Below are positions 1 to 45,005 of a stretch of 64,000 bases of DNA, piece by piece; the stretch's first letter is position 1; each line of letters starts with the position of its first letter. A program made the position numbers and the translations under genes. Below the pieces are notes generated by a model. It was not told the origin of the DNA. It ran no database searches and saw nothing but the letters and a program-made list of their open reading frames with translations. Source of the DNA: Raillietiella orientalis (Eukaryota); contig JAYWIR010000085.1 in assembly GCA_036172245.1 (NCBI GenBank), forward strand, positions 1-64,000, written 5' to 3'.

Positions 1-501
1 TGGACTGCGGTGCCCTCCTAGGACTGTGGCGGAGGCTGGCCTCAGCTCTCCTGCACCAGGACACCGCGAGAGACTTGATGCGCCGCTTCTTCACGCCAGA
101 CGGCCTGTCTTTAGGTGCTGTCGTTGCAACCGTGTGTTGCACCGGCGCCATCGACAAGGCCCACCGAGAGTTGGAGAAGCTGGCCATCCTTCGTCAGCCC
201 ACCGGATTAGCCAGCGCAAGCATGTCGTTGGCTGCCGAGTGGGCCCATCTGCCAGAGGACGCTAAGAGAGAGATCGCCGGCATCCATCGCCGGTTTTGAA
301 AGGAAGGAACGGACTCACCAAAGACCCCAGTCCCGTGCCCTCCATATTTTTATTTTTATTTTTTTATAGGAGTGTATTTGTGGTCCCCTCCCTCCCGTTC
401 CGGACTTTCGGCATACCGACCTGCGTGTCGGGGATCCCACCCCCTTCGTCTCTTGTTTTTCCTTTGTCCAGGAGCTCTGTTCCCGGATAGTTTTTAATAA
501 A
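1..501 (+). mobile_element. 3' end of an L1/Tx1-type non-LTR retrotransposon (ORF2 C-terminus 1-299 plus 3' UTR)
   Basis: Open frame ...DCGALLGLWRRLASALLHQDTARD...IHRRF* ends at 299; DC..L..LW resembles the end of the ORF2 zinc finger. A T-rich tract, a C-rich tract and a small stem-loop follow, ending in AATAAA at 496-501. A homologous relic at ~9500-9700 retains upstream zinc-finger residues. Confidence 0.7.
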
Positions 502-744
502 CGCCCCGGCGCACCCGGGTGATAAACAGCCGACCCCCCGTTCCAATCCCCTCCCTCCCGTTGCGGTCCCCTCCCTCCCGTTCCGGACCCCTACCTCCCG
601 TTTCGGACTTTCCGTATACCGAACTGCGTGTCGGGGATCCCACCCCCTTCGTCTCTTCTGTGTCCTTTGTCCGGGAACTCTGTTTCTGGATAGTTTTGAA
701 ATAAACGCCCCGGCGCAGCCGGGTGACAAACAGCCGACCCCCCG
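502..744. repeat. 39-nt direct repeat (502-540 and 706-744), candidate target-site duplication
   Basis: cgccccggcgca(c/g)ccgggtga(t/c)aaacagccgaccccccg, 2 mismatches; it is the antisense of APE codons GGRLF(V/I)TR(L/V)RRG. Confidence 0.9.
541..705 (+). mobile_element. 5'-truncated second copy of the same 3' UTR
   Basis: Aligns with 383-501 with about 11-12 differences over ~100 nt, has three copies of a 20-nt unit (cccctccctcccgtt.cgg.), ends in AATAAA at 700-705, and is flanked by 39-nt direct repeats. Confidence 0.75.
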
Positions 745-925
745 CGATCGTTTCGATCTCCTGGACGTCTGTCGCGGTGATCACGTGGATCTCCTGCAAC
801 AGGGCCAGGTCGACCTCACGCAGGTTGGCGGCTGTATCTCGTCTGTTGCCGTCGTCGCACAGCCCGTTGACATTTCAACAGGCCACGCGGATCCGACGGC
901 GATAGATAGTAACACCTGGGCTCAC
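704..925 (-). pseudogene. ORF2 N-terminus: APE (apurinic-like) endonuclease, truncated by insertion
   Basis: IRVAC*NVNGL...VDLALLQEIH...RRGV matches APE motifs (WNVNGL, D..LQETH, RGV). The Trp position is TGA at 877-875. Confidence 0.85.
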
Positions 926-950
926 GATCCGGTGAGCCCAGGTGTTACTA
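907..950 (-). promoter_or_regulatory. Perfect 19-bp stem, 6-nt loop hairpin at the ORF1/ORF2 junction
   Basis: tagtaacacctgggctcac-gatccg-gtgagcccaggtgttacta; on the minus strand the 5' arm begins with the ORF1 stop codons TAG TAA. Confidence 0.9.
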
Positions 951-2659
951 ATGGGAAATCGGCGCTGCGGCGTCCGCCACCTGTTGGGGCGCGATGCTAG
1001 GAGGAGGGGGAGGTGCGTCCAGCACCTGGTCCCCCTCGCCCATGGGTGCCGGCGCGTCAGGCGGATCGCCCGAAGGTGGGGTCGCGCCTACCTGTTCAGG
1101 ATCGGCGACTGCGAGGGGGACTTCGCCCCCCGGCTGACCCTCATCCATCGGGGTGGCCTGCTTGGCGGCTTCCGAGCGTGGGAGATCTCCCTCCGGGATT
1201 CCCACGCTAGCGACGGCTTCCGTCTTCTCGCTGGTGGAGTGGAGGCGTCTCCTCGGCTTCTGGGATTTACGTCCCGTCTTCCGGGGGGTGCCTCCGAGGA
1301 GGAGGATGTGCTTCCGGCCCCCAGGTCGCACTCACCTGCGGGTGCCTTCTTCCCCGGAGCCGGCCTTCGCACGGCCTTGAGCGAGGAATTCTCACGCTCG
1401 GCCAACGTGGCTGCGAGCTCCTCCGCCACCTTCGCGAACGCGGCGTCCTTGGCTTCTGCGGTCGCGTCGCGCGGTTCACCCTATGTACAAACAGAGGGTT
1501 CGCCTTCGCGAACGTCACGCGCGGCGGAAGCGGCGAGGGGATGCTCTTCGCCCAGGATGGCAGCCTCCGGAACGTCGACGAGCTCTAGTGCCACCAAGCA
1601 CTGACGGAGTTTTTCGGGATGCGGCTTTTCCTTTTTATTCGAGCTGGTCGCGACTGTCTCCGTCTTTAACGGTGCCGTTTTTTGAGGCTTCTCATTTCTG
1701 GTTTTAACCACCTGCCAACCCTCCTTGACTCTCGCGTCTTCGTGAGTTTTTTCCTCCGACGCATGTGCGGGTGGAAGGAGGGCTGGAGGCTGGGGCTGGC
1801 CATTTTCGCCTTTTGGTCTTTCGACCTTTTGCGACTTTTTCGCCTGCGACTTTTTGGCGGCAGGTGGCACCGGGGTGGGGCGTTTAGGGCATACGCGTCG
1901 CACGTGTCCCTTAACCCCGCTTAACCCCCCCAGGCACTCCATATTCGGGCGCCTTTTTCGCAGGTGCCTACTGCATTGCAGTGGCTACAGTAGCGGGGTT
2001 TCCCCACGTTCCAGAGGTCGACCGATTCTCTCGCGACCTGTAGCTTGTGGGGCAGCCCACCACCCTCGTTCACGGTGACGCGCTGCGGCCTGGCTCCCGA
2101 AAAGGTTATTATAGCCCTGAAAAATCGTGGGCTTCGGCCACAACGCGTGCACCTCCCCGTATTTCCGCAGTTCATCACTAACCGCTGACCGCGTCATGAG
2201 GTTAGTGATCCCGGTAAGGTGGACCTCCACGGAGCGGTCCATGGATACCGGGTAGATCTTGCGGGCATCTACGTTCTGCGGGTTATTAATCAAGCACTGT
2301 GCCAAGGCGATGTCCTTACACACCACCTCGACGCGCTGACCCTCACGGAGGACGGAGAGGCCGTCAAGATCTTCTTCTTTTACATTCATGCTTTGTAATG
2401 CCTTTGTAGAGGCACGCGTAGTGCGCCCATCAAAAAGTGGACCCACCTTGTACACAAGCGAAGGCTTGTAACCGGCATCCCTGTAGGCGGCTTCTTCGGC
2501 CATGGTTTCCGCGCTAGGCGCGGTCACCATGGCGCTCCATGTCCTCGCCGTAGGCGGGGATGATCCTGGGGCGGGTGCCCCAGACACTGCAGGCTGTGGG
2601 GGCGAACTAGCCTCCCCCACACCTACATCCATCGCGGTGTCCTCAGGCATCGTAGCCAT
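948..2659 (-). pseudogene. ORF1 (gag-like nucleic-acid-binding protein), frameshifted
   Basis: ATG at 2659; RRM-like segment VEVHLTGITNLMTRSAVSDELRKYGEV; two damaged CX2CX4HX4C knuckles (CSHCNAVG-HLRKR and C..GVKGHVRRVC); long Pro/Lys/Ala low-complexity tail ending PISH TAG TAA at 950-945; several frameshifts. Confidence 0.8.
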
Positions 2660-2914
2660 CGGACACCGAGGACGTGAACCACACACCACACAGAAAACGC
2701 TTTTAAAGTCTTATTGACGGAGCGCACTAAAAGCACTACCACCCCGACATCCGCAGGCTGGCGGAATACACAGCGGGAGCCGAGAGGCAAGCCTGGCAGT
2801 CCGGTTCGGCGAGCCTGCTGGGCACGCTTTCTCCGAAACCGCCTGGTATCGGGGGCATGAAGAATCGGCAGTATAACTTTCGGACAGAGCTGCTGAGCTT
2901 AATTTTCTGTACAG

Positions 2915-5900
2915 ATGGCTATAGATCCATTACTTGCTTAGAGATATTTCACATTCCAAAATAAGGAGCAGTGACGATGGAAGGTTACATCTTAATCTGT
3001 TAGTCTTTTCCAATGCCGCATGGCAAACTATGAGAAAGTTGACAAGGTAATTTTGAAGTTAGCTGAATGTCTAATAGGTTGGATAGCATACTACGAAGTA
3101 GTCTATGACTACGAATGACAAAAATATATTCTTAGTTATAATACGGATTCTCTGGATAATGAAAGAAATGGCCACAAGAATAAAGCAGGATGTGCAAGAA
3201 CACAGAAAATGCAATTTAGATTACAAAAGAATGCATAAGAAGATGGATATTTGAAGAAAGAACATTAAAAAATAACAATGATTGCATACATGCCATCTGT
3301 GCCAATCCCCCTGCGTTCTCTAAACAATAGATAACAGCACTTGGAAAAAGAATTCCACAACGAGGCAAAAGTGAGGGCAGGAATGAAAACTGAAGCCTCA
3401 AATTGCTGAAATTTTCTTACGAAGCTTCACATCCAAAATTTTCTGCTTACTGAAGCTTTAAAGGCATGTGCTATACATTCTTTCAATAATTACCAATAGT
3501 TCATTGTAACAAATAATTTGGTTAACCAGTCTTATATTATAGCATTCTGTAAGGTATCATTCGCATGGCTGTTCGCAATGCGAAGATAGCTAATCAAATA
3601 GGCCATCTTCGAATTCGTTTAATTCGAACTAATGATCTGAACTTAATTAACTGAACAAATGGACAGCATCAAAATCCTTTTGCGGATAGAATTACACAGT
3701 TGCCACTAAGCTTAGATGGTCTGATACACCTACGAGATATATGAATCCTGCAATGTTTTCTTGGCAAGCGTGATGTTTAAGGAAAGGCTCTTTGAACGGT
3801 ACTTGAGACATTTGAAATTCCTTGATTCACTGGATTTCGTCTAGTTTTGGTTTGCATAAAGTTTTTGATCTAGTTTTTGATTGCATAAAAATCCCTTTAT
3901 GACAGCTTTTTGGGAATTTGATGCAACGTAAACACATATTTGAGATCCTTGCCCTTCTGTGAGCAGATGCATGAAGTAATGCATTTTACAAGAATTTAGG
4001 CAAAAGTCTTTATAAAAAAAAAAAAAAAGCAAACCAGAGCGTTGAAACAAACTGAACTCCCGGTTACGGATGCCAAGTACTTTAACAATATGACCTGGAG
4101 ATCACAGATGGATGAAGGATCATAACCACAACATGCACAATAGAACTACAGAACTAAAAGCATTAGAGCCTTTCATAATGAAAGTGGTAGCGCTTACTGA
4201 TTGAAATTTAGAAACAGGCAAGCAATCTACAAAGATACTTCCATGGATATACTGCACACAAATTACTTATCTACTGAAGTATGCATGGTCCCTGGCATAC
4301 ATGACTGGAATTTAAAAGCAGCAAAAAAACGTCAATTGAGAGAATATTTCCTTTGTGTTCTCATCTGGAACATTAAAATTAGGATTTGAATTTTCTTCCA
4401 GAAAACGAGGCCAAGATACAGGAACATTATCTTTAATTTACTAATTTTCAAACATGTAACTAATGCAATGCTAAAAACCTCCCTCAAACCATCAACTTAG
4501 TTTCCTAATAAAAAAGTGGTTGTGAATTTTAATAAACGAAAACACCAATGCAATTTATCTAGTAAATGCCTCCTCCAAACAGAGGCAGAAAACAATGAAT
4601 AGCCAAAATTACCATGTTAACAATTATTTAAGACTGGTGAAGCAGAAACACCACCAACAAAAAAAAACAATCTAAAAGTATGAGTTAAGAAAATGTGCTA
4701 AATAAATCGATGCATAAAATTTAATAACTGTAACACAGATGTATGTTCTGAAGAACAGAAATTTGACCCATGGCAAATACCAGGTAAACAGTTCTAGATA
4801 CAAAATGTTTGTTGTTTTTAGATGATCTAACAAGCAGATTAGAGAATGCTGACATGAAACATGAGATTGGAAACTATGAAATCCGAGGTGAAACCCAAAC
4901 TGATCATTCATATGCATCTGATACTGAATCTATTTTGAAAAATACATGCTGCCAACATCAAGTCAGAAAAATTGTTAAAGCATTAATTTTCACATCAAAG
5001 TTTTCTCAATGCAACCTAATGTGCAGCATGCAAACAATAACTGTATTTTTAATCAAGACCTGGGAATCACTTAAGCATTCTCAATTAGAAATGGACCATA
5101 TTTACATGAAGCAGGTGTATGCTAAAATTCCAAATTTGTTTTATCAACATAATTTGTTCTGAAGATGAGGATGGCACCTCCAAAAGCAATAATGGTTTCC
5201 CAAATAGAACTTATAATGTGCAAAGCTTTTCAAAAAGTTTGAAACATGGTTTGTGTTATCGAATTTATGATGACTTGAAAAAACGGAATTATAAAGTCAA
5301 AGACAACTTGAAGATGAACTGCCTTACCTTTATCTCTGCTGTTTTCAGCAGTTTCTTTGTTCTTTGACAAAACCTTTAAGAAGTTTCAAAGCATATTTCA
5401 GACCGTAATATATTGAGAAATAATGAGCATCTCTGAACATTATATTCTTCATCCATTATACTTTGAGTCCCCCATTTACAGCAGATATACGAAAGCAACT
5501 GTACTTTGAATAAACTCGTGTCCAAAATGTATCAAACACCACTTTCAGTCAATAGATTTTCTGGATGCCATTCAGGTTCAGAATAAGTTTTTTCAATTTC
5601 CACGATGTTTATCCGTTTCTGCTTTTCAGCTGCATCTTACAACCATCTCTGGAGTGGCGTATGGCTCAAAGAAATGGCGGTCTTGAAGAGCTTTTTGAAA
5701 GTTTTTCAAATAATTAGCAGCATAACTGTACCCCAATAAGAATTCCACAATCGCTGATAAGAAAACGAACTGGGAAAACACATTAAAATTTCTTGCTCAT
5801 GTTTATGATGATAATCCATTTCCTGACTGCTTTCAATGGAAATCCTCCTCAACAGATTATAAATTTTGACGAAATGAGAACCTAATTGGTTACCACATTA

Positions 5901-14470: not shown

Positions 14471-15367
14471 TATATGAACCAGCTTTCTTGGATAGCTAGG
14501 TTTGCAAAAGGTTGGGTTGTCAATTTAGAATCTTTGTGTCATTTAAATTTCTTTACAAGAATAGACAATCGATCTTCATTTATAAGTTGATTTTCTTTTG
14601 TAACTCAAAAAATAAGTTTTTTTGTATAAGTTCTAAATGAGACACATAGGTCAAAATTAGCGAAAACATTTGTGTTTTGATCGTTTCCGATCCGAAAATT
14701 CAAACTAATCGTCAGAACGAAAACAGCACAACTTGTTTCAACTTGTAAACAAGGTCTTAAAATAAGCCATCAGTAATGAGTGCATCAATCCATCGATTTT
14801 AGTCCTTTTATTTAATTTTTATAGGTAATGCTGCTCACTACCAGTCTTTTGTATATATCACCATAAAAATTATTTGTATCTTGATAGAATACGTTAGCAG
14901 TACTTATGCGTAATCAAACAAATCATCATAATGATTTGTTTTTTCTAGTTCCTTTATTTATGAACACGTTTGTTTATAGGGTCATTGCATTGAAAACCTT
15001 GGATTCATTCGAAACTACTCAAAATTCAAAGGTTTTAATAGAATACGTAATAATTGGAGGATTCTATAATATGTGATTATTGTTCCTTATTCTAAATCTA
15101 TATCCAATCTCTTAATGATTAATTGTTTATTTATTAATTTTTCGATAGATAATTTTAGTCATGCTGAATTTTTAACATATTTCAAATTGAAGATGGCAAT
15201 TCCTCTAGGAAGGCCTTGGTATAGCTCCGGAACGTGGAAAGGACGAGGATGTGCAAGGGGTTGCTTATTTGTTGGCAAAATTAGTTGGAAAAACCAAAAA
15301 TTTTGAAGACTCTTCGTTAAATATGTTTCCAAAATCATAACTTAAATGCTCGTTTTTATTTTTGAAA

Positions 15368-16481: not shown

Positions 16482-19400
16482 TCCTTGTTCACAAGATCTT
16501 AGTTGTTTATTCCATGGATACGGTTTTTAATCAGTGTTAAATCCTTATTATCAGAGAAATGAATTAAGAAAATGGAGTTTCATTCTCCTAATCATAATTG
16601 AACATCTGAGGAAATAATATGACTTTCAGGAAGTATTTTGAGATTGAAGCATGCTTAATATTAGCTTTATTCATAGTGTTAGTACTTCCCAAACTGAGGA
16701 CAAATATCTTATAAGATTCTGCTGTAAAGCATCACAAGCTAGTAATGTTGATATAACTACTTTTGAGCGAAATTTGTTTTTGCGTTTCTAATTTCTGTTT
16801 GATGTAATGACATGATTTCTGATGTGGTTCCATCAATACTATGTTTCTTGGTCTTTTTTTTATGTGTGACAACCAAATCAACCAAACCTCATTACTTCTA
16901 GACACTATTCTTCAGTTAAAAATTTCCATTCCAATGTTTCTGCAAAATCATCAGTGTGTGAATTCACAAAGTGATTATTTCGTGCATGAGTCTTGATTTG
17001 AAGCTTTGTAAATAGGTATTTATGAATTCCATGTAATTAACATGTATAGCCAGAGTACAGTATAGATGTGTACAGTTCACTTAAGTTGAAGTGCAAGAAC
17101 CATAAGTGCAGATCCTGTGGCTAAGCAGAACATTTTTGATAACCCTGCACTTGAATAAAATCCTATCCTTGAGTAAATTTTCCTCAGGCTATTTGAATTA
17201 AACAGTGTAAACTTTGAACTGTATGGATTCAAGATTAACTGCCCTATCCAGAAGTCTTGTTAAAAAATGTTAGTGCATAGCAAAGTAGTTTTGCACCTTT
17301 GCAAGAGTTTTGCTTAAAACTGAGTGCCCTATTAACCTAAAGTGAATGATGTTCTCATACCCAAATTCATTGCTACGTGAATGTTAATATTCATTGCTGG
17401 TTTAGAATTTAAGGCAGTATTTCCCATTCAGTTTTCAGATTTGTTGCATATCAATCCCAAGTTCACTTTGCTGCATTGAATGTTATTAGCAGAAATCAAC
17501 ACACGAAGAATGTGAAATTCGATGTTTTTAGCAAGACAGTATTGAAGAATGGATACAAAAATAGCTTGGACTAGACAAAACACTATACTCGTTAAAATTG
17601 CGTGATGCAGAACAAAAAGTTGCAAATTTAATGTGATCCTTTGTAAAATGTAATGTTCTCCTGAAGAGGAATTTGTCATACTTATTAACTGCCAGGTGCG
17701 TTTTGAAGGACAAAAAAATGCAAAATGCATGTGTTTTATGTGTGAAAGTTACCAGTCAGAAATCAGTTGATGGAAGGTGTTACTGGTGATGAAGTTTCCT
17801 GATGGAATGTGCATATGTAACTGGTACTGGAATATATTTGCACCGATAAGCCCAGAAGGTACGAATTGGTTAAAACATGGAGATCTCAGTGGTGTGCACA
17901 CAATTGTGAATTCTTTCCCCTGGGTTGATCCAAATGGATCGTTACATTCGTAAAGTTTATGTAGGTTCAGCAAGTGAAAAGTTGCAGTTGCCAACCTAGG
18001 AACACACCTAAAAATCAGGCGAAAGACAGTACAAATGATAAATGTAAATGAATGAAAAATGCTAGAAATAATTATGAAAATGCCTAATTTGCTGCCGAAA
18101 TTCTTCACTGGGTGAATTCATGCAGCATAAACACAAGGAATTTCTGCCAAATGGTTGGGCAGTTAAACTAGAGGAATTACGTATCTTGAATGGAGAGACA
18201 TCAATGCATGATCAGAGGAATGGATAGGTGCAGCACGAATTCATGCGGCATCACCAAAGTTAGCAGTATGACGAGACGAATTCGTGCCAAGTGGCAAAAG
18301 GAATGTAAACATCTGAATCTAAGCAGCAGGATGGAGGCATCTCTGTAGCTCGATGTGGGCTTTTTGCACTGCGTTGCCTATCGTCACGAGTGGCGACGTG
18401 TGCTGCCCGCCCAGACAACCAACTCCCATACGTTTGAAAAGGTGACCGCACAGGGCAGAAGTTGGAAAGCAGGACTCCTTTCGCATTGAATTAAGTTGAA
18501 GGAAAAATTCAGTTCGACTTCATTTTGGTTGCTGATTCCCATATTCTTGATCGATTACCTTTGTCCAACTTCCCCGATCCGAACTGTATTGCGGTGGTAA
18601 TCTTCTACCTGGAAGCTACATGACGGAAACATCCTTGATTTTTCGCGTGCTTTTGTATAATACAAATGTTCAGCACACTTGGAGCCAAAAGTCTCTGTGT
18701 GCAGAATCGTAACCTCTTTACCAATCGTAATTCGTTGTGGTTCCCGAAGTGGTCAGGATGACGGTCACCTTCGCGAGAACAACTCTTTTCTTTCGTTCGC
18801 TTTCCCTTTCTGTGTGTGCGGTAGTAGTGCTGGCCATTGCGAGCTCTTCGAAACCGCTCATGTAAAGGGATTTCGAGGACCCTCACGTTCCCTTATGTTG
18901 TTTTTTTTAAACAACCTTCGCCCCCTCTTCTCAGCTTCTGCCTCTTCCAGCTGTCGTTTCGCCAATGCATAGCTTGCCTGTTTCGTTGTGAACGCAAGAA
19001 ATGTTACGTTCACAACGCGCTTCGTACTGGTAGCTGTGAACGTGTAGCCGAGTGTGAGAGAGGCTGCGATTGCTACTGTGAGTCACCATGAAAGCACACT
19101 AGTAGGGAACGTCACATAGAATGCAACAGGCGGTTCCAAACTGGCTGAAAGCATCACTGTGGTGCATGGAATTGCGGATCCCTCTCGTTGGGTACTGTTC
19201 AAGAATCATCGAAAGGGAGGTTCATTTGGTCACGAGGAAGGAAACAAGTGAATTCGTTCGGAATCTCCATCTCAATCTGAGCGTCAATCTCCACGTCCAT
19301 GTAATATCGCTCTATGAACACAGCTCTATGAACGGGCGAAATTACCTATTCGGGAGAGTACTGGTGCTCGGTGTTCGCCAGAGTGACCAGACTCATCCAG

Positions 19401-20715
19401 TCAGAGGGGATGCAGCATTTCGGAAATTTTCACAAGAAATTATCATCAGCATCTTTTCCTGAAATTTTTCGTCCTTAACAAGCTTGGCAAAAGAATTACA
19501 ATCACGCGAAATGTATCCAGCAATCACAGCAAAAGAAACTCAGTTTTAAGATTACATTACTCCGAACGCTTCACGTTTTTAACAAATAATTTAAGGACTA
19601 GTAAATCGTATAGTGGACGTAAATAGCTAACGGATAAAGAGCACGTTATCGTTTTCAGTAAGATTTTCAATGAGTTGACACTGCTTCATATTTTATATCA
19701 GTTTAATGTAAGAGCACAGAATCTAGTTTCAGAGTGAATGAGAATGCTTACAAATACAAAGATCTTCCCTTTATATTTCTATGATTTCTCGAAATTCAAT
19801 CCAAACGTTACACAATAGGTAACTGCGAATCCGAGCTGAGGTAATTTATGGCTTAAAAGTATTAAATTTTTCGACCTGATATTTCCAGAAGGAAACTCAG
19901 CAATTTCTTGGATTTTTGATTATTTAGGAAATTAAATCTTGAATGCTATGGATACTAATGATGATGCTGACTCATTTTTAAACCTTTCTTGCTTTAAAGT
20001 GAACGAAAAATGGAATGGAAAAAAATTGGAAAAAATCTTGGAAAATTCCTGCTTTTTATGGACATACATGTAATTTTAAATGAAGTTTCTCGAAGAATTA
20101 AAAGATGTATCGAAAGCATTGAAGGGAAGAAAAACTTTTCACAAAGTTCATTTACTATTATCTCACGTAATAAACTGTCTGAACAACCAGGGAGTTTCAT
20201 ATTTTCATATGTTCATCGTTGAATGAGAGCATCTGCCCCTGACTTAAATATAATGCAATTACCCATTAATTACAACAAACGATACAACAGTTATGATACC
20301 ATGTTTTCAAGAAATGGAACAAAAAGCAGTATGCAAACACAGAACATCCATGCATGCATATAAGAATTGGAGATGCAACAGACAGACATAAAGTAAGTGT
20401 CCTACTTGAGATCTGTCAAGTATTCATTTAATTGTTAAGGAACTAATTAATAGCAGTTTGAGACCTTCTGATTTGGCAAGACTGCAATGGCTTCCTGTGA
20501 GGAAGACATTGCAGTCTCGACAAAGGACAAGATGAATAGTTCAATTTGTTTGGACGAATAATTGTAGGCTTGATCCTTGTGACCGTAATGATGCGCTAGC
20601 TAGCAATTTTAAATGGGAAGAAAGGACTGCACTAAAAAAATTGTCCGTAAGAGACAAGACTCAGTAGAAGATGCGATGACAGAATTACGGACTTTATATC
20701 TGTATATTGATGCAG

Positions 20716-28229: not shown

Positions 28230-28500
28230 CTCGGAGGGGAACGCAAACCTATGGGTGACTGTGGATTCACAAGGGAACTGCAAAGTATCAGTTGGCTCAG
28301 AGTGATTACCTAAGCAAGCAGCTTTGCAGTATCACACCCCATTGCGCAGTCCTCACCAGCTGCAAAGCGATTGGAGCAATAACTGTGTGTAAGTTGAAGC
28401 AGCCACTCGAGATCCTAGCCGAGCGCCTGTTGTAGGAAGTCGCATACCACATCCATACGCCATGAAGCGTATGGATGTGGTACGCGACTTCATTACCGGG
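28230..28500 (-). mobile_element. Old L1/Tx1 relic: ORF1/ORF2 junction and APE N-terminus
   Basis: ATSYNRRSARISSGCFNLHTV...GVILQ...VIT aligns with VTIYRRRIRVACWNVNGL...ALLQEIHVIT of the element at 704-925. Confidence 0.6.
28436..28491 (-). promoter_or_regulatory. 25-bp hairpin with 6-nt loop, preceded on the minus strand by TAA TGA
   Basis: gaagtcgcataccacatccatacgc-catgaa-gcgtatggatgtggtacgcgacttc; the single mismatch is a G-U wobble on the minus strand. Confidence 0.9.
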
Positions 28501-41081: not shown

Positions 41082-41900
41082 ATGGCAACGGTCGCTGCGT
41101 TCTCCCGACTCGTCTCAAGACCCCTGGATCTGTCCCAGTGCGCGCCCGAGTGCTGCTCGGTCCCTCCCTTTTCTCGGAATCCCTTCAGCATAGACGCCAT
41201 CCTGGGTCGGGATGGGTTCAGGAGAGGGAACTTCTCCCTGCCCCCACAAAGCGGCAGCAGCAACCGAGGTGAGGAGGAGAGGGAAAGGGGGAGGAAAAGG
41301 GAGAGGAGGAAGAGAAGTGGAGAGGCGCTTCTCCTCCTCTCTACCATGCGCACGCCCTCTCCGCCCTTTCTCGGGAGACCCCGGCCGTCTTTCATCCCTC
41401 CTCTCCCCTCAGGCGAGGAAGTTGGCACCACCGTCAGCGACTCCCCGTCCGCCCCTGCGGCGAAGCCCCGGTCCAAGAGAATGCGCACGACCTTCAGCCC
41501 GGACCAGGTGGAGCAGCTGGAGAGGATCTTCCGCGCCCGGCAGTACATGGTTGGTCAGGAAAGACTGCACCTCGCGGCGACTCTCCGCCTCACGGAGGCG
41601 CAGGTGAGCGCACCCCGAACCTCCTCCCCTCCCCTTCCGGTCTTGCCCGCCCACGTGTTTACTCGACAGTCGCCGCACGAGCGCCCCCTCTTTCAGGTGA
41701 AAGTGTGGTTCCAGAACCGCAGGATCAAGTGGCGCAAGCAGCAGATGGAAGCCTTCCGGCAACGCTGGAGAACCGATGCGAGCCAGAACTCCGCCCTGAG
41801 CGGCCCCTCGGCCCCTTCCCCGGTTTCCCCCCTCCCTCCTCCCTCTCCTGTCCCTCCTCCTACGCACCAGCGGAGGCAAGAAACCTGCTTCTCCACATAG
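41082..41900 (+). CDS. Not: Not/Noto-family (NKL, ANTP class) homeobox transcription factor; predicted exons 41082-41268, 41413-41603, 41697-41900 (193 aa)
   Basis: Homeodomain KRMRTTFSPDQVEQLERIFRARQYMVGQERLHLAATLRLTEAQ/VKVWFQNRRIKWRKQ (QYMVG and IKWRK are Not-like); eh1 motif FSIDAIL; GT-AG intron 41604-41696 at the usual helix-3 position. Intron 1 is less certain. Confidence 0.92.
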   Translation: MATVAAFSRLVSRPLDLSQCAPECCSVPPFSRNPFSIDAILGRDGFRRGNFSLPPQSGSSNRGEEERERGRKRERRKRSGEALLLLSTMRTPSPPFLGRPRPSFIPPLPSGEEVGTTVSDSPSAPAAKPRSKRMRTTFSPDQVEQLERIFRARQYMVGQERLHLAATLRLTEAQVSAPRTSSPPLPVLPAHVFTRQSPHERPLFQVKVWFQNRRIKWRKQQMEAFRQRWRTDASQNSALSGPSAPSPVSPLPPPSPVPPPTHQRRQETCFST

Positions 41901-44970: not shown

Positions 44971-45005
44971 ACATTTTTAACGTGGCAGGGCCACGTTAAA
45001 AATGT
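44971..45005. repeat. Perfect 16-bp inverted repeat with 3-nt loop
   Basis: acatttttaacgtggc-agg-gccacgttaaaaatgt. Confidence 0.9.

Follow-up and report, generated by a model that had tools for sequence, protein, structure and literature searches.

A perfect 19-bp hairpin lies exactly at the ORF1/ORF2 junction of a non-LTR retrotransposon (LINE) copy situated at the left end of the window (the whole stretch of DNA analysed, 64,000 nucleotides). The copy occupies the minus strand from ~2890 to 345, and all positions given below are those of the window. The stem begins with the stop codon of ORF1 and ends on a near-cognate codon of ORF2, a reading frame that has no AUG of its own. We tentatively favor, with slightly less than even confidence, the reading that the hairpin in the source element gates a termination-coupled, non-AUG translation of ORF2, of which the window holds one dead copy. 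How ORF2 of a LINE is translated from a bicistronic RNA is an unsettled question, and in the portions of the literature drawn on here, only SART1 and mammalian L1 are described as having been examined experimentally. By analogy with these elements, a structure at the junction would not be exotic in a LINE whose ORF2 has to be translated unconventionally. If the favored reading is true, the intercistronic spacer amounts to one small hairpin that extends from the stop codon to a non-AUG start, and the junction would offer a very compact system, simple to mutate, in which to study termination-coupled reinitiation downstream of a long ORF. If the hairpin is instead private to this copy, the finding is an ordinary one, and chiefly shows a high rate of perfect short palindromes in this genome.

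A dead LINE copy and its ORF1

The copy is GC-rich (0.60), and the adjoining DNA is AT-rich (0.35). Its 5' border is only approximate, and was placed where the GC content steps from ~0.3 to ~0.65 between 2900 and 2860. In the 5'-to-3' direction, the copy consists of a 5'UTR of ~230 nt, ORF1, the hairpin, ~43 endonuclease-like codons, two 3'UTR units, and (AAAATA)3 (Table 1). The tandem 3'UTR units (~203 nt) are 88-92% identical to each other, and a peptide translated from them, SPGCAGAFI, is common to the C-terminus of the protein P0004. Near 745, the ORF2 stub (~43 codons) is joined directly to the duplicated 3'UTR, which identifies the copy as internally deleted. The reverse transcriptase domain is absent, and the copy is dead and cannot be autonomous. 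A target-site duplication of at least 7 nt was not found around the copy, a second copy of the LINE was not found within the 64-kb window, and positions 1-3200 gave no Rfam match at E<=1.

ORF1 runs from an ATG at 2659-2657 to a UAG at 950-948, and spans 1712 nt (~570 codons). Only a library of representative proteins gave matches to it, four among 1.84 billion (E 2.4e-29 to 5.1e-12), all of them singletons on JGI/IMG metagenome contigs of 1466-2118 nt; a protein search with the N-terminal part of ORF1 returned no relatives. A search for loci with the ORF1 alignment picked out 60 metagenome, 12 viral, and 33 prokaryote stretches carrying the pattern, and none of these was confirmed by tblastn. 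Of the four protein relatives, P0003 (contig of 2118 nt) and P0001 show ~40-50% identity. The best relative, P0003 (472 aa), gave tblastn alignments in three frames of the window (E 6e-72, 2e-21, and 5e-18), with frameshifts near 2103, 1955, and 1290, and the homology stops at 999. In the same alignment, an in-frame TAG at 1483-1481 faces a Glu of P0003, and both CCHC knuckles of the window's ORF1 are damaged.

P0003 itself contains two zf-CCHC stretches (Pfam E 5.4e-7, above the cut-off), and the relatives of ORF1 carry two CCHC knuckles after an RNA-binding-like region. An RRM was not detected in ORF1 by Pfam, and the Atlas neighbors of both queries were arthropod LINE gag-like and ZCCHC3-like clusters with an RNA-binding domain (RBD) plus CCHC (scores 0.91-0.92). 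A Type I ORF1 is defined, in the part of the source that deals with ORF1 types, by its RRM plus CCHC architecture (PMC4120745). The CCHC architecture of ORF1 here matches that of LINEs with a Type I ORF1, that is, I, Jockey, R1, Tad1, plant L1, and some L2/CR1 subgroups. ORF1 was assigned to the Type I architecture on account of its homology to P0003 and the zf-CCHC stretches of the latter, with the lead to an RBD coming from the Atlas only. The element appears to represent a new LINE family with a Type I ORF1, whose clade cannot be named since the reverse transcriptase is deleted.

Table 1. Coordinates of the LINE copy, its junction, and the other perfect palindromes of the window
Feature	Position	Strand	Basis or remark
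Approximate 5'UTR of the LINE	2660..2890	-	GC step; first ORF1-frame ATG at 2659-2657
ORF1, decayed gag-like gene with two CCHC knuckles	948..2659	-	tblastn of P0003
Perfect 19-bp hairpin	907..950	-	Inverted-repeat search and RNA folding
ORF2 stub in the +1 frame, endonuclease-like N-terminus, broken by UGA 877-875	746..955	-	Frames; Exo_endo_phos E 0.081
GAUCCG, exact complement of the hairpin loop	888..893	-	Shuffle test
Second predicted hairpin, 10 bp, over the WNVNGL codons	861..884	-	RNA folding (dot-bracket)
3'UTR, two tandem ~203-nt units, joined straight to ORF2 codon ~43	364..745	-	Repeat families D1, D3
(AAAATA)3 tail, the element's 3' end	345..363	-	TATTTT x3.2 on the + strand
Perfect palindrome, 16 bp, extends to 25/26	28445-28482		Outside the LINE
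Perfect palindrome, 16 bp	44971-45005		Outside the LINE
Perfect palindrome, 11 bp	14916-14941		Outside the LINE

The junction hairpin and the ORF2 frame

A previous sequence-only reading of this DNA had ORF1 ending in UCC CAU UAG UAA on the minus strand, with the UAG as the first triplet of a perfect 19-bp stem. Both observations were confirmed. The UAG occupies 950-948 and the UAA 947-945, and the arms, at 950-932 and 925-907, are 100% complementary (19/19 Watson-Crick pairs, zero G-U) and enclose a 6-nt loop, CGGAUC (931-926). The 5' arm contains both stops, and the 22-nt gap between the UAG and a GUG at 925-923 is made up entirely of the 5' arm and the loop. When folded alone, the 44 nt of the hairpin reached -35.8 kcal/mol, and the two strands fold with nearly the same stability (-37.1 and -35.8 kcal/mol). 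The RNA fold of 860-1000 (141 nt) reached -74.4 kcal/mol, compared to a shuffle mean of -47.6 (z -6.7), and none of 200 shuffles was as low. The 19-nt arm sequence occurs in the window at these two sites only, with 0 expected (100 shuffles), and neither viral nor metagenome contigs contained it (0 matches each); viral contigs also gave 0 matches to the pattern of the stem top. The single stem-top match in prokaryote genomes was a Pseudomonas hairpin with unrelated flanks, and was judged to be due to chance.

Several details of the stem concern its relation to the codons around it. At the foot of the stem, the stop codon (U950) comes to lie beside A907, the last base of the stem, which is at the same time the first base of an in-frame AUC at 907-905. 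The GC-rich top of the stem starts 6 nt past the UAG, and after 10-12 nt have been unwound, a top of 7-9 bp retains a computed -12 to -17 kcal/mol. A GAUCCG at 893-888, 13 nt 3' of the stem, is complementary to the loop, so a pseudoknot is possible; when the 60 nt that follow the stem were shuffled 20000 times, such a complement appeared in 438 cases (2.2%), a feature that was looked for post hoc, and the site also belongs to a direct CGGATC repeat. Other identities of the hairpin were considered and dropped: a miRNA precursor, since the stem is too short; a Helitron 3' hairpin, since the flanks do not match the features of one; and a Kozak-type enhancement by a downstream hairpin, since no in-frame near-cognate codon lies 14 nt upstream of either hairpin.

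The description of ORF2 as a +1 frame without an AUG was also borne out. No stop interrupts the frame between 1087 and 878, and it encodes no Met there, so that an AUG is lacking across 70 upstream codons as well as in the stub, and 46 of the open codons lie upstream of the ORF1 stop. From the stop to the deletion point there is a single ATG (873-871), which belongs to another frame and is located in the AAUG loop of the second hairpin. Translation of ORF2 must therefore begin unconventionally. The in-frame GUG at 925-923 does open the 3' arm, as had been claimed, and has an A at -3. The AUC at 907-905 precedes the Trp position of the endonuclease motif by 10 codons.

In the window copy, the GUG is unconnected to the endonuclease motif because an in-frame UGA (877-875) stands between the two, just before NVNGL, and the AUC is likewise cut off by it. 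A Trp is usual at this position in LINE endonucleases, for which reason the UGA is probably specific to this copy, one more of its lesions. With the UGA read as W, the endonuclease-like reading amounts to ~43 codons (874-746) of the form ...WNVNGL...LLQEIH.... Positions 3-44 of the Exo_endo_phos profile aligned to this stub with E 0.081 and 13.1 bits, against a cut-off of 24.5, over its ~43 codons. A comparison of the stub with PDB sequences gave no match at E<=10, and protein searches with the ORF2 frame (114 aa; 70 aa) gave no relatives. The endonuclease assignment of the stub, drawn from its position and motif, is a weak one.

Origin of the palindrome and age of the copy

A scan of the 64-kb window for perfect stems of at least 11 bp with loops of 3-10 nt returned four stems, the LINE hairpin and the three outside the LINE. 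In 20 Markov simulations, one stem of at least 11 bp occurred in 6 and more than one in 0, the longest being 14 bp. The two 16-bp palindromes have 3-6-nt spacers and lie in DNA without a recognizable coding context. The perfect palindrome at the junction is special compared to random sequence, and less so compared to its own window. Template switching during replication makes perfect stems in a single event, as far as the process is described in PMC8794818, and hairpins formed in this way are perfect reverse-complement repeats with a short spacer, as is the LINE hairpin. Given the lack of G-U pairs, the equal fold on both strands, the other palindromes of the window, and a documented process, the stem likely arose by template switching. 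This account deals with origin and not with function, and is compatible with a functional reading. What divides the readings is whether the template switch took place in an active lineage, where it would shape translation, or is private to the copy.

That the palindrome is private to the copy, made by a short replication template switch that followed insertion or took place in a sub-lineage already dead, and without any role in translation, seems to us possible but doubtful. The fit between the stop and the stem would then be a by-product, with the UAG UAA being no more than the complement of GUUACUA in the other arm. The template-switching literature does document perfect stems of this kind in the relevant part of PMC8794818. 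A perfect Watson-Crick stem with a 6-nt spacer and equal stability on both strands agrees with such an event, as do the two further 16-bp palindromes, which point to a high background in this genome. Without either arm and the loop (25 nt), ORF2 would lie in the frame of ORF1, an outcome that chance would produce one time in three anyway, and the direct repeat CGGATC..GTG (931-923, 895-884) may have provided microhomology. However, an insertion of the 5' arm would imply an ancestor with a fused ORF1-ORF2, which LINEs that carry a Type I ORF1 do not usually have. The position of the stem also speaks against a private palindrome. The stem opens with the ORF1 stop and closes on a near-cognate codon of the ORF2 frame, and the chance that a random 44-nt palindrome would fall within the ~110-nt zone from 999 to the endonuclease motif is estimated at ~4%. 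At two palindromes per 61 kb, this gives a roughly estimated expectation of ~0.002-0.004.

The age of the copy bears on both readings. The CpG observed/expected ratio is 1.02 in the LINE copy and 0.60 in the 5-kb flank, indicating no CpG loss, and 3 frameshifts and 2 nonsense codons were counted in the copy. From these two results, its decay is estimated at ~1-1.5%, at which a 44-nt stretch would remain untouched about half the time. The persistence of an intact stem beside a frameshifted ORF1, which the sequence-only reading had offered as a sign of selection, consequently carries no weight; the copy is simply too young. On the other hand, its youth (CpG ratio of 1.02) leaves little time for a palindrome to have formed after insertion, which argues against a private event and in favor of a hairpin that gates ORF2. 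With the find discounted for being post hoc, we consider it fairly probable that the hairpin was already present in the source element.

Possible routes from ORF1 to ORF2

Two mechanisms had been suggested for the junction, namely that a ribosome terminating at ORF1 melts the stem and thereby uncovers the start of ORF2, or that the stem promotes +1 frameshifting at the stop. Either is plausible in view of the junction geometry, but one of the supports, the intact stem, fails. The UGA behind the GUG and the other two perfect palindromes make the case weaker still, without refuting it. In the favored reading, the hairpin in the RNA of the LINE lineage would decide the passage of ribosomes from ORF1 to ORF2. 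The ribosome footprint behind the unwinding geometry is established. A ribosome with the UAG in its A site would have already unwound ~10-12 nt of the 5' arm, leaving the GC-rich top of 7-9 bp, and termination would then occur on a partly melted stem, the foot of which sets U950 next to A907. The post-termination 40 S subunit may restart at a near-cognate codon, either the GUG at 925-923 once the stem top melts, or the AUC at 907-905 if the subunit steps across the stem foot. Ribosomes that had not just come off the end of ORF1 would be barred by the -36 kcal/mol stem, with the result that ORF2 would be made rarely and in cis only. In this scheme, the stem, its site, the reading frames, and the missing AUG are observed, and we infer the presence of the hairpin in the source element, the unwinding geometry, the reinitiation, and the codon used.

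Apart from where the stem sits and the missing AUG of ORF2, the z of -6.7 at the junction, the -12 to -17 kcal/mol left in the stem top, and the loop complement 13 nt downstream (2.2% by chance) are consistent with a gate. Against it, the reading draws on one dead copy, in which an in-frame UGA parts both the GUG and the AUC from the endonuclease motif. Moreover, a stem with 19/19 Watson-Crick pairs, no G-U, and alike on both strands bears the signature of reverse-complement copying at the DNA level and not of an RNA helix under long selection, and two further perfect 16-bp palindromes occur in non-LINE DNA of the window. The length of ORF1 (~570 codons) is a further objection, since reinitiation, as far as the cited accounts describe it, ordinarily depends on an upstream ORF that is short, or else on special elements. 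In addition, a survey of vertebrate L1 intergenic spacers reports, in the portion concerned with them, no shared structure.

The known systems that come closest differ in their details. In SART1, a telomeric LINE of Bombyx mori, reviews describe a UAAUG stop-start and a downstream hairpin that is required for ORF2 translation. SART1 is a bicistronic LINE of APE type, as is putatively the element here, and it too has a stable RNA fold on the 3' side of the stop; translation of its ORF2 is tied to ORF1 termination. In SART1, however, the AUG overlaps the stop and the hairpin lies 34 nt downstream, whereas here the stem opens with the stop codon itself, the junction sequence is CAU UAG UAA with no in-frame AUG to overlap it, and the candidate starts lie inside the stem or at its end. 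Human L1 ORF2 is described in reviews as being translated independently of an AUG, which is ascribed there to reinitiation. Mammalian LINE-1 is similar in that ORF2 follows ORF1 on one RNA, but differs in its 63-nt spacer, its Type II ORF1, and the absence, in the account referred to, of a required junction structure.

A ribosomal shunt offers a second parallel. In CaMV and RTBV, as outlined in the sections on these viruses, an ORF ends at the foot of a stable stem, and the 40 S subunit lands just 3' of that stem, where it is able to begin translation without an AUG (at AUU in RTBV). The pararetrovirus shunt is stated in the same accounts to need a uORF of 6-7 codons that ends 7-8 nt before a large multi-branch stem. 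The landing site has its counterpart here, with the AUC at the end of the stem; the upstream ORF does not, being ~570 codons long and ending within the stem. It is rather unlikely, in our judgment, that the junction represents a form of coupling new to eukaryotes, in which the base of one compact hairpin would carry both the ORF1 stop and the non-AUG start from which an animal LINE family translates its ORF2. In that case, only a ribosome just off the ~570-codon ORF1 would open or cross the stem and restart, in a manner resembling the hairpin-gated coupling of bacteria, or a shunt after a long ORF.

A different outcome is expected if the hairpin, perhaps as a pseudoknot with 893-888, stimulates a +1 frameshift at CAU_UAG_U, in which event an ORF1-ORF2 fusion would be made. 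We hold this to be highly unlikely. The arrangement does favor it in part: ORF2 lies in the +1 frame and is open 46 codons upstream of the stop, a GC-rich stem top begins 6 nt after the UAG, and the complement of the loop follows 13 nt downstream. A 6-nt spacing from the stop to a stem is typical of recoding stimulators. According to the literature on recoding, a stop codon that occupies the A site effectively stimulates a +1 shift. In antizyme, the +1 shift is described as occurring at UCC_UGA, on the last sense codon before the stop, with a 3' pseudoknot beginning 3 nt after. The likeness extends to the second ORF in the +1 frame, the stop within the site, and the RNA structure just 3' of it, but the site here is CAU_UAG_U in place of UCC_UGA_U, and the pseudoknot consists of a 6-nt complementarity only. 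Furthermore, CAU_UAG_U is not among the shifty sites named in the sources drawn on (UCC_UGA, CUU_AGG, and GCG_AGU), and a tRNA-His would, we infer, be unable to re-pair on AUU. A pseudoknot would leave zero nucleotides for the connecting loops, and a reviewer of the field, in the part devoted to non-LTR elements, has them using termination-reinitiation and no frameshifting.

Finally, the hairpin may be a feature of the family that has another role in the RNA or none, such as ORF1p binding or packaging, RNA stability, or the place of a neutral passenger in the intercistronic spacer, which we regard as unlikely. The ORF1p of Type I (RBD plus CCHC) binds RNA according to the section of PMC4120745 that treats it, but nothing links ORF1p to the stem. 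Internally deleted copies retain the 5' part of the element, as seen in the window copy and in P0004, which would suit a role of this kind; the element of P0004, however, was propagated or retained in spite of having lost the junction. In any case, a stem of -36 kcal/mol placed on both stop and start codons must affect translation anyway.

The 3' end of the LINE and its flank

The 3'UTR of the LINE, the dead minus-strand retrotransposon copy, consists of two tandem units, each of which opens with a GC-rich stem-loop motif (see the table for coordinates). This motif translates as SPGCAGAFI, a perfect match to the C-terminal end of P0004, a metagenomic relative of the ORF1 protein, whereas the ORF1 part of P0004 shares just 36% identity with the window (tblastn). 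Thus, the 3'UTR motif is far better conserved than the ORF1 protein. Such conservation would be expected if the reverse transcriptase recognises this 3' stem-loop. The element of P0004 also carries an internal deletion, with ORF1 joined to the 3'UTR.

In the GC-rich DNA that adjoins the LINE tail, the open frame had no match in Pfam. Since the stretch 3-73 shares 76% identity with the reverse strand at 9613-9540, another repeat family adjoins the LINE.

Features in and around the LINE and elsewhere in the window
Feature	Position	Strand	Details
ORF1 C-terminal tail	999-1290 (P0003 residues 380-460)	minus	rich in proline and acidic residues
Second hairpin	861-884	minus	10 bp; covers conserved WNVNGL codons
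LINE 3'UTR	364-745	minus	two tandem ~203-nt units
GC-rich DNA adjoining LINE tail	1-344	plus (open frame)	98 codons
Palindrome outside LINE	28436-28491		hairpin, 25/26 bp
Palindrome outside LINE	44971-45005		hairpin, 16/16 bp
Palindrome outside LINE	20465-20531		hairpin, ~25 bp with mismatches
Palindrome outside LINE	18984-19017		hairpin, 14 bp

The ORF1 tail and the WNVNGL hairpin

The motif P-x-x-M-(E/D)-E-G is repeated in the ORF1 tail, about four times in P0003, the best relative, and twice in the window; another relative, P0001, stops short of this tail. In the second hairpin, which lies in the ORF2 stub, U870 is the partner of A875, the nucleotide that creates the in-frame stop, and a G in its place would keep the pairing, as G-U.

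Palindromes and a putative split homeodomain

The four strong palindromes outside the LINE have loops of 3-6 nt and are surrounded by DNA without recognisable coding context. The density of young perfect palindromes is unusually high for 64 kb. On the plus strand, at 41500-41900, a putative split homeodomain is encoded across two reading frames (…RMRTTFSPDQVEQLERIFRARQYMVGQERLHLAATLRLTEAQ / VKVWFQNRRIKWRKQQ…); it may resemble a homeobox gene of the Not/NOTO type whose homeobox is interrupted by an intron.
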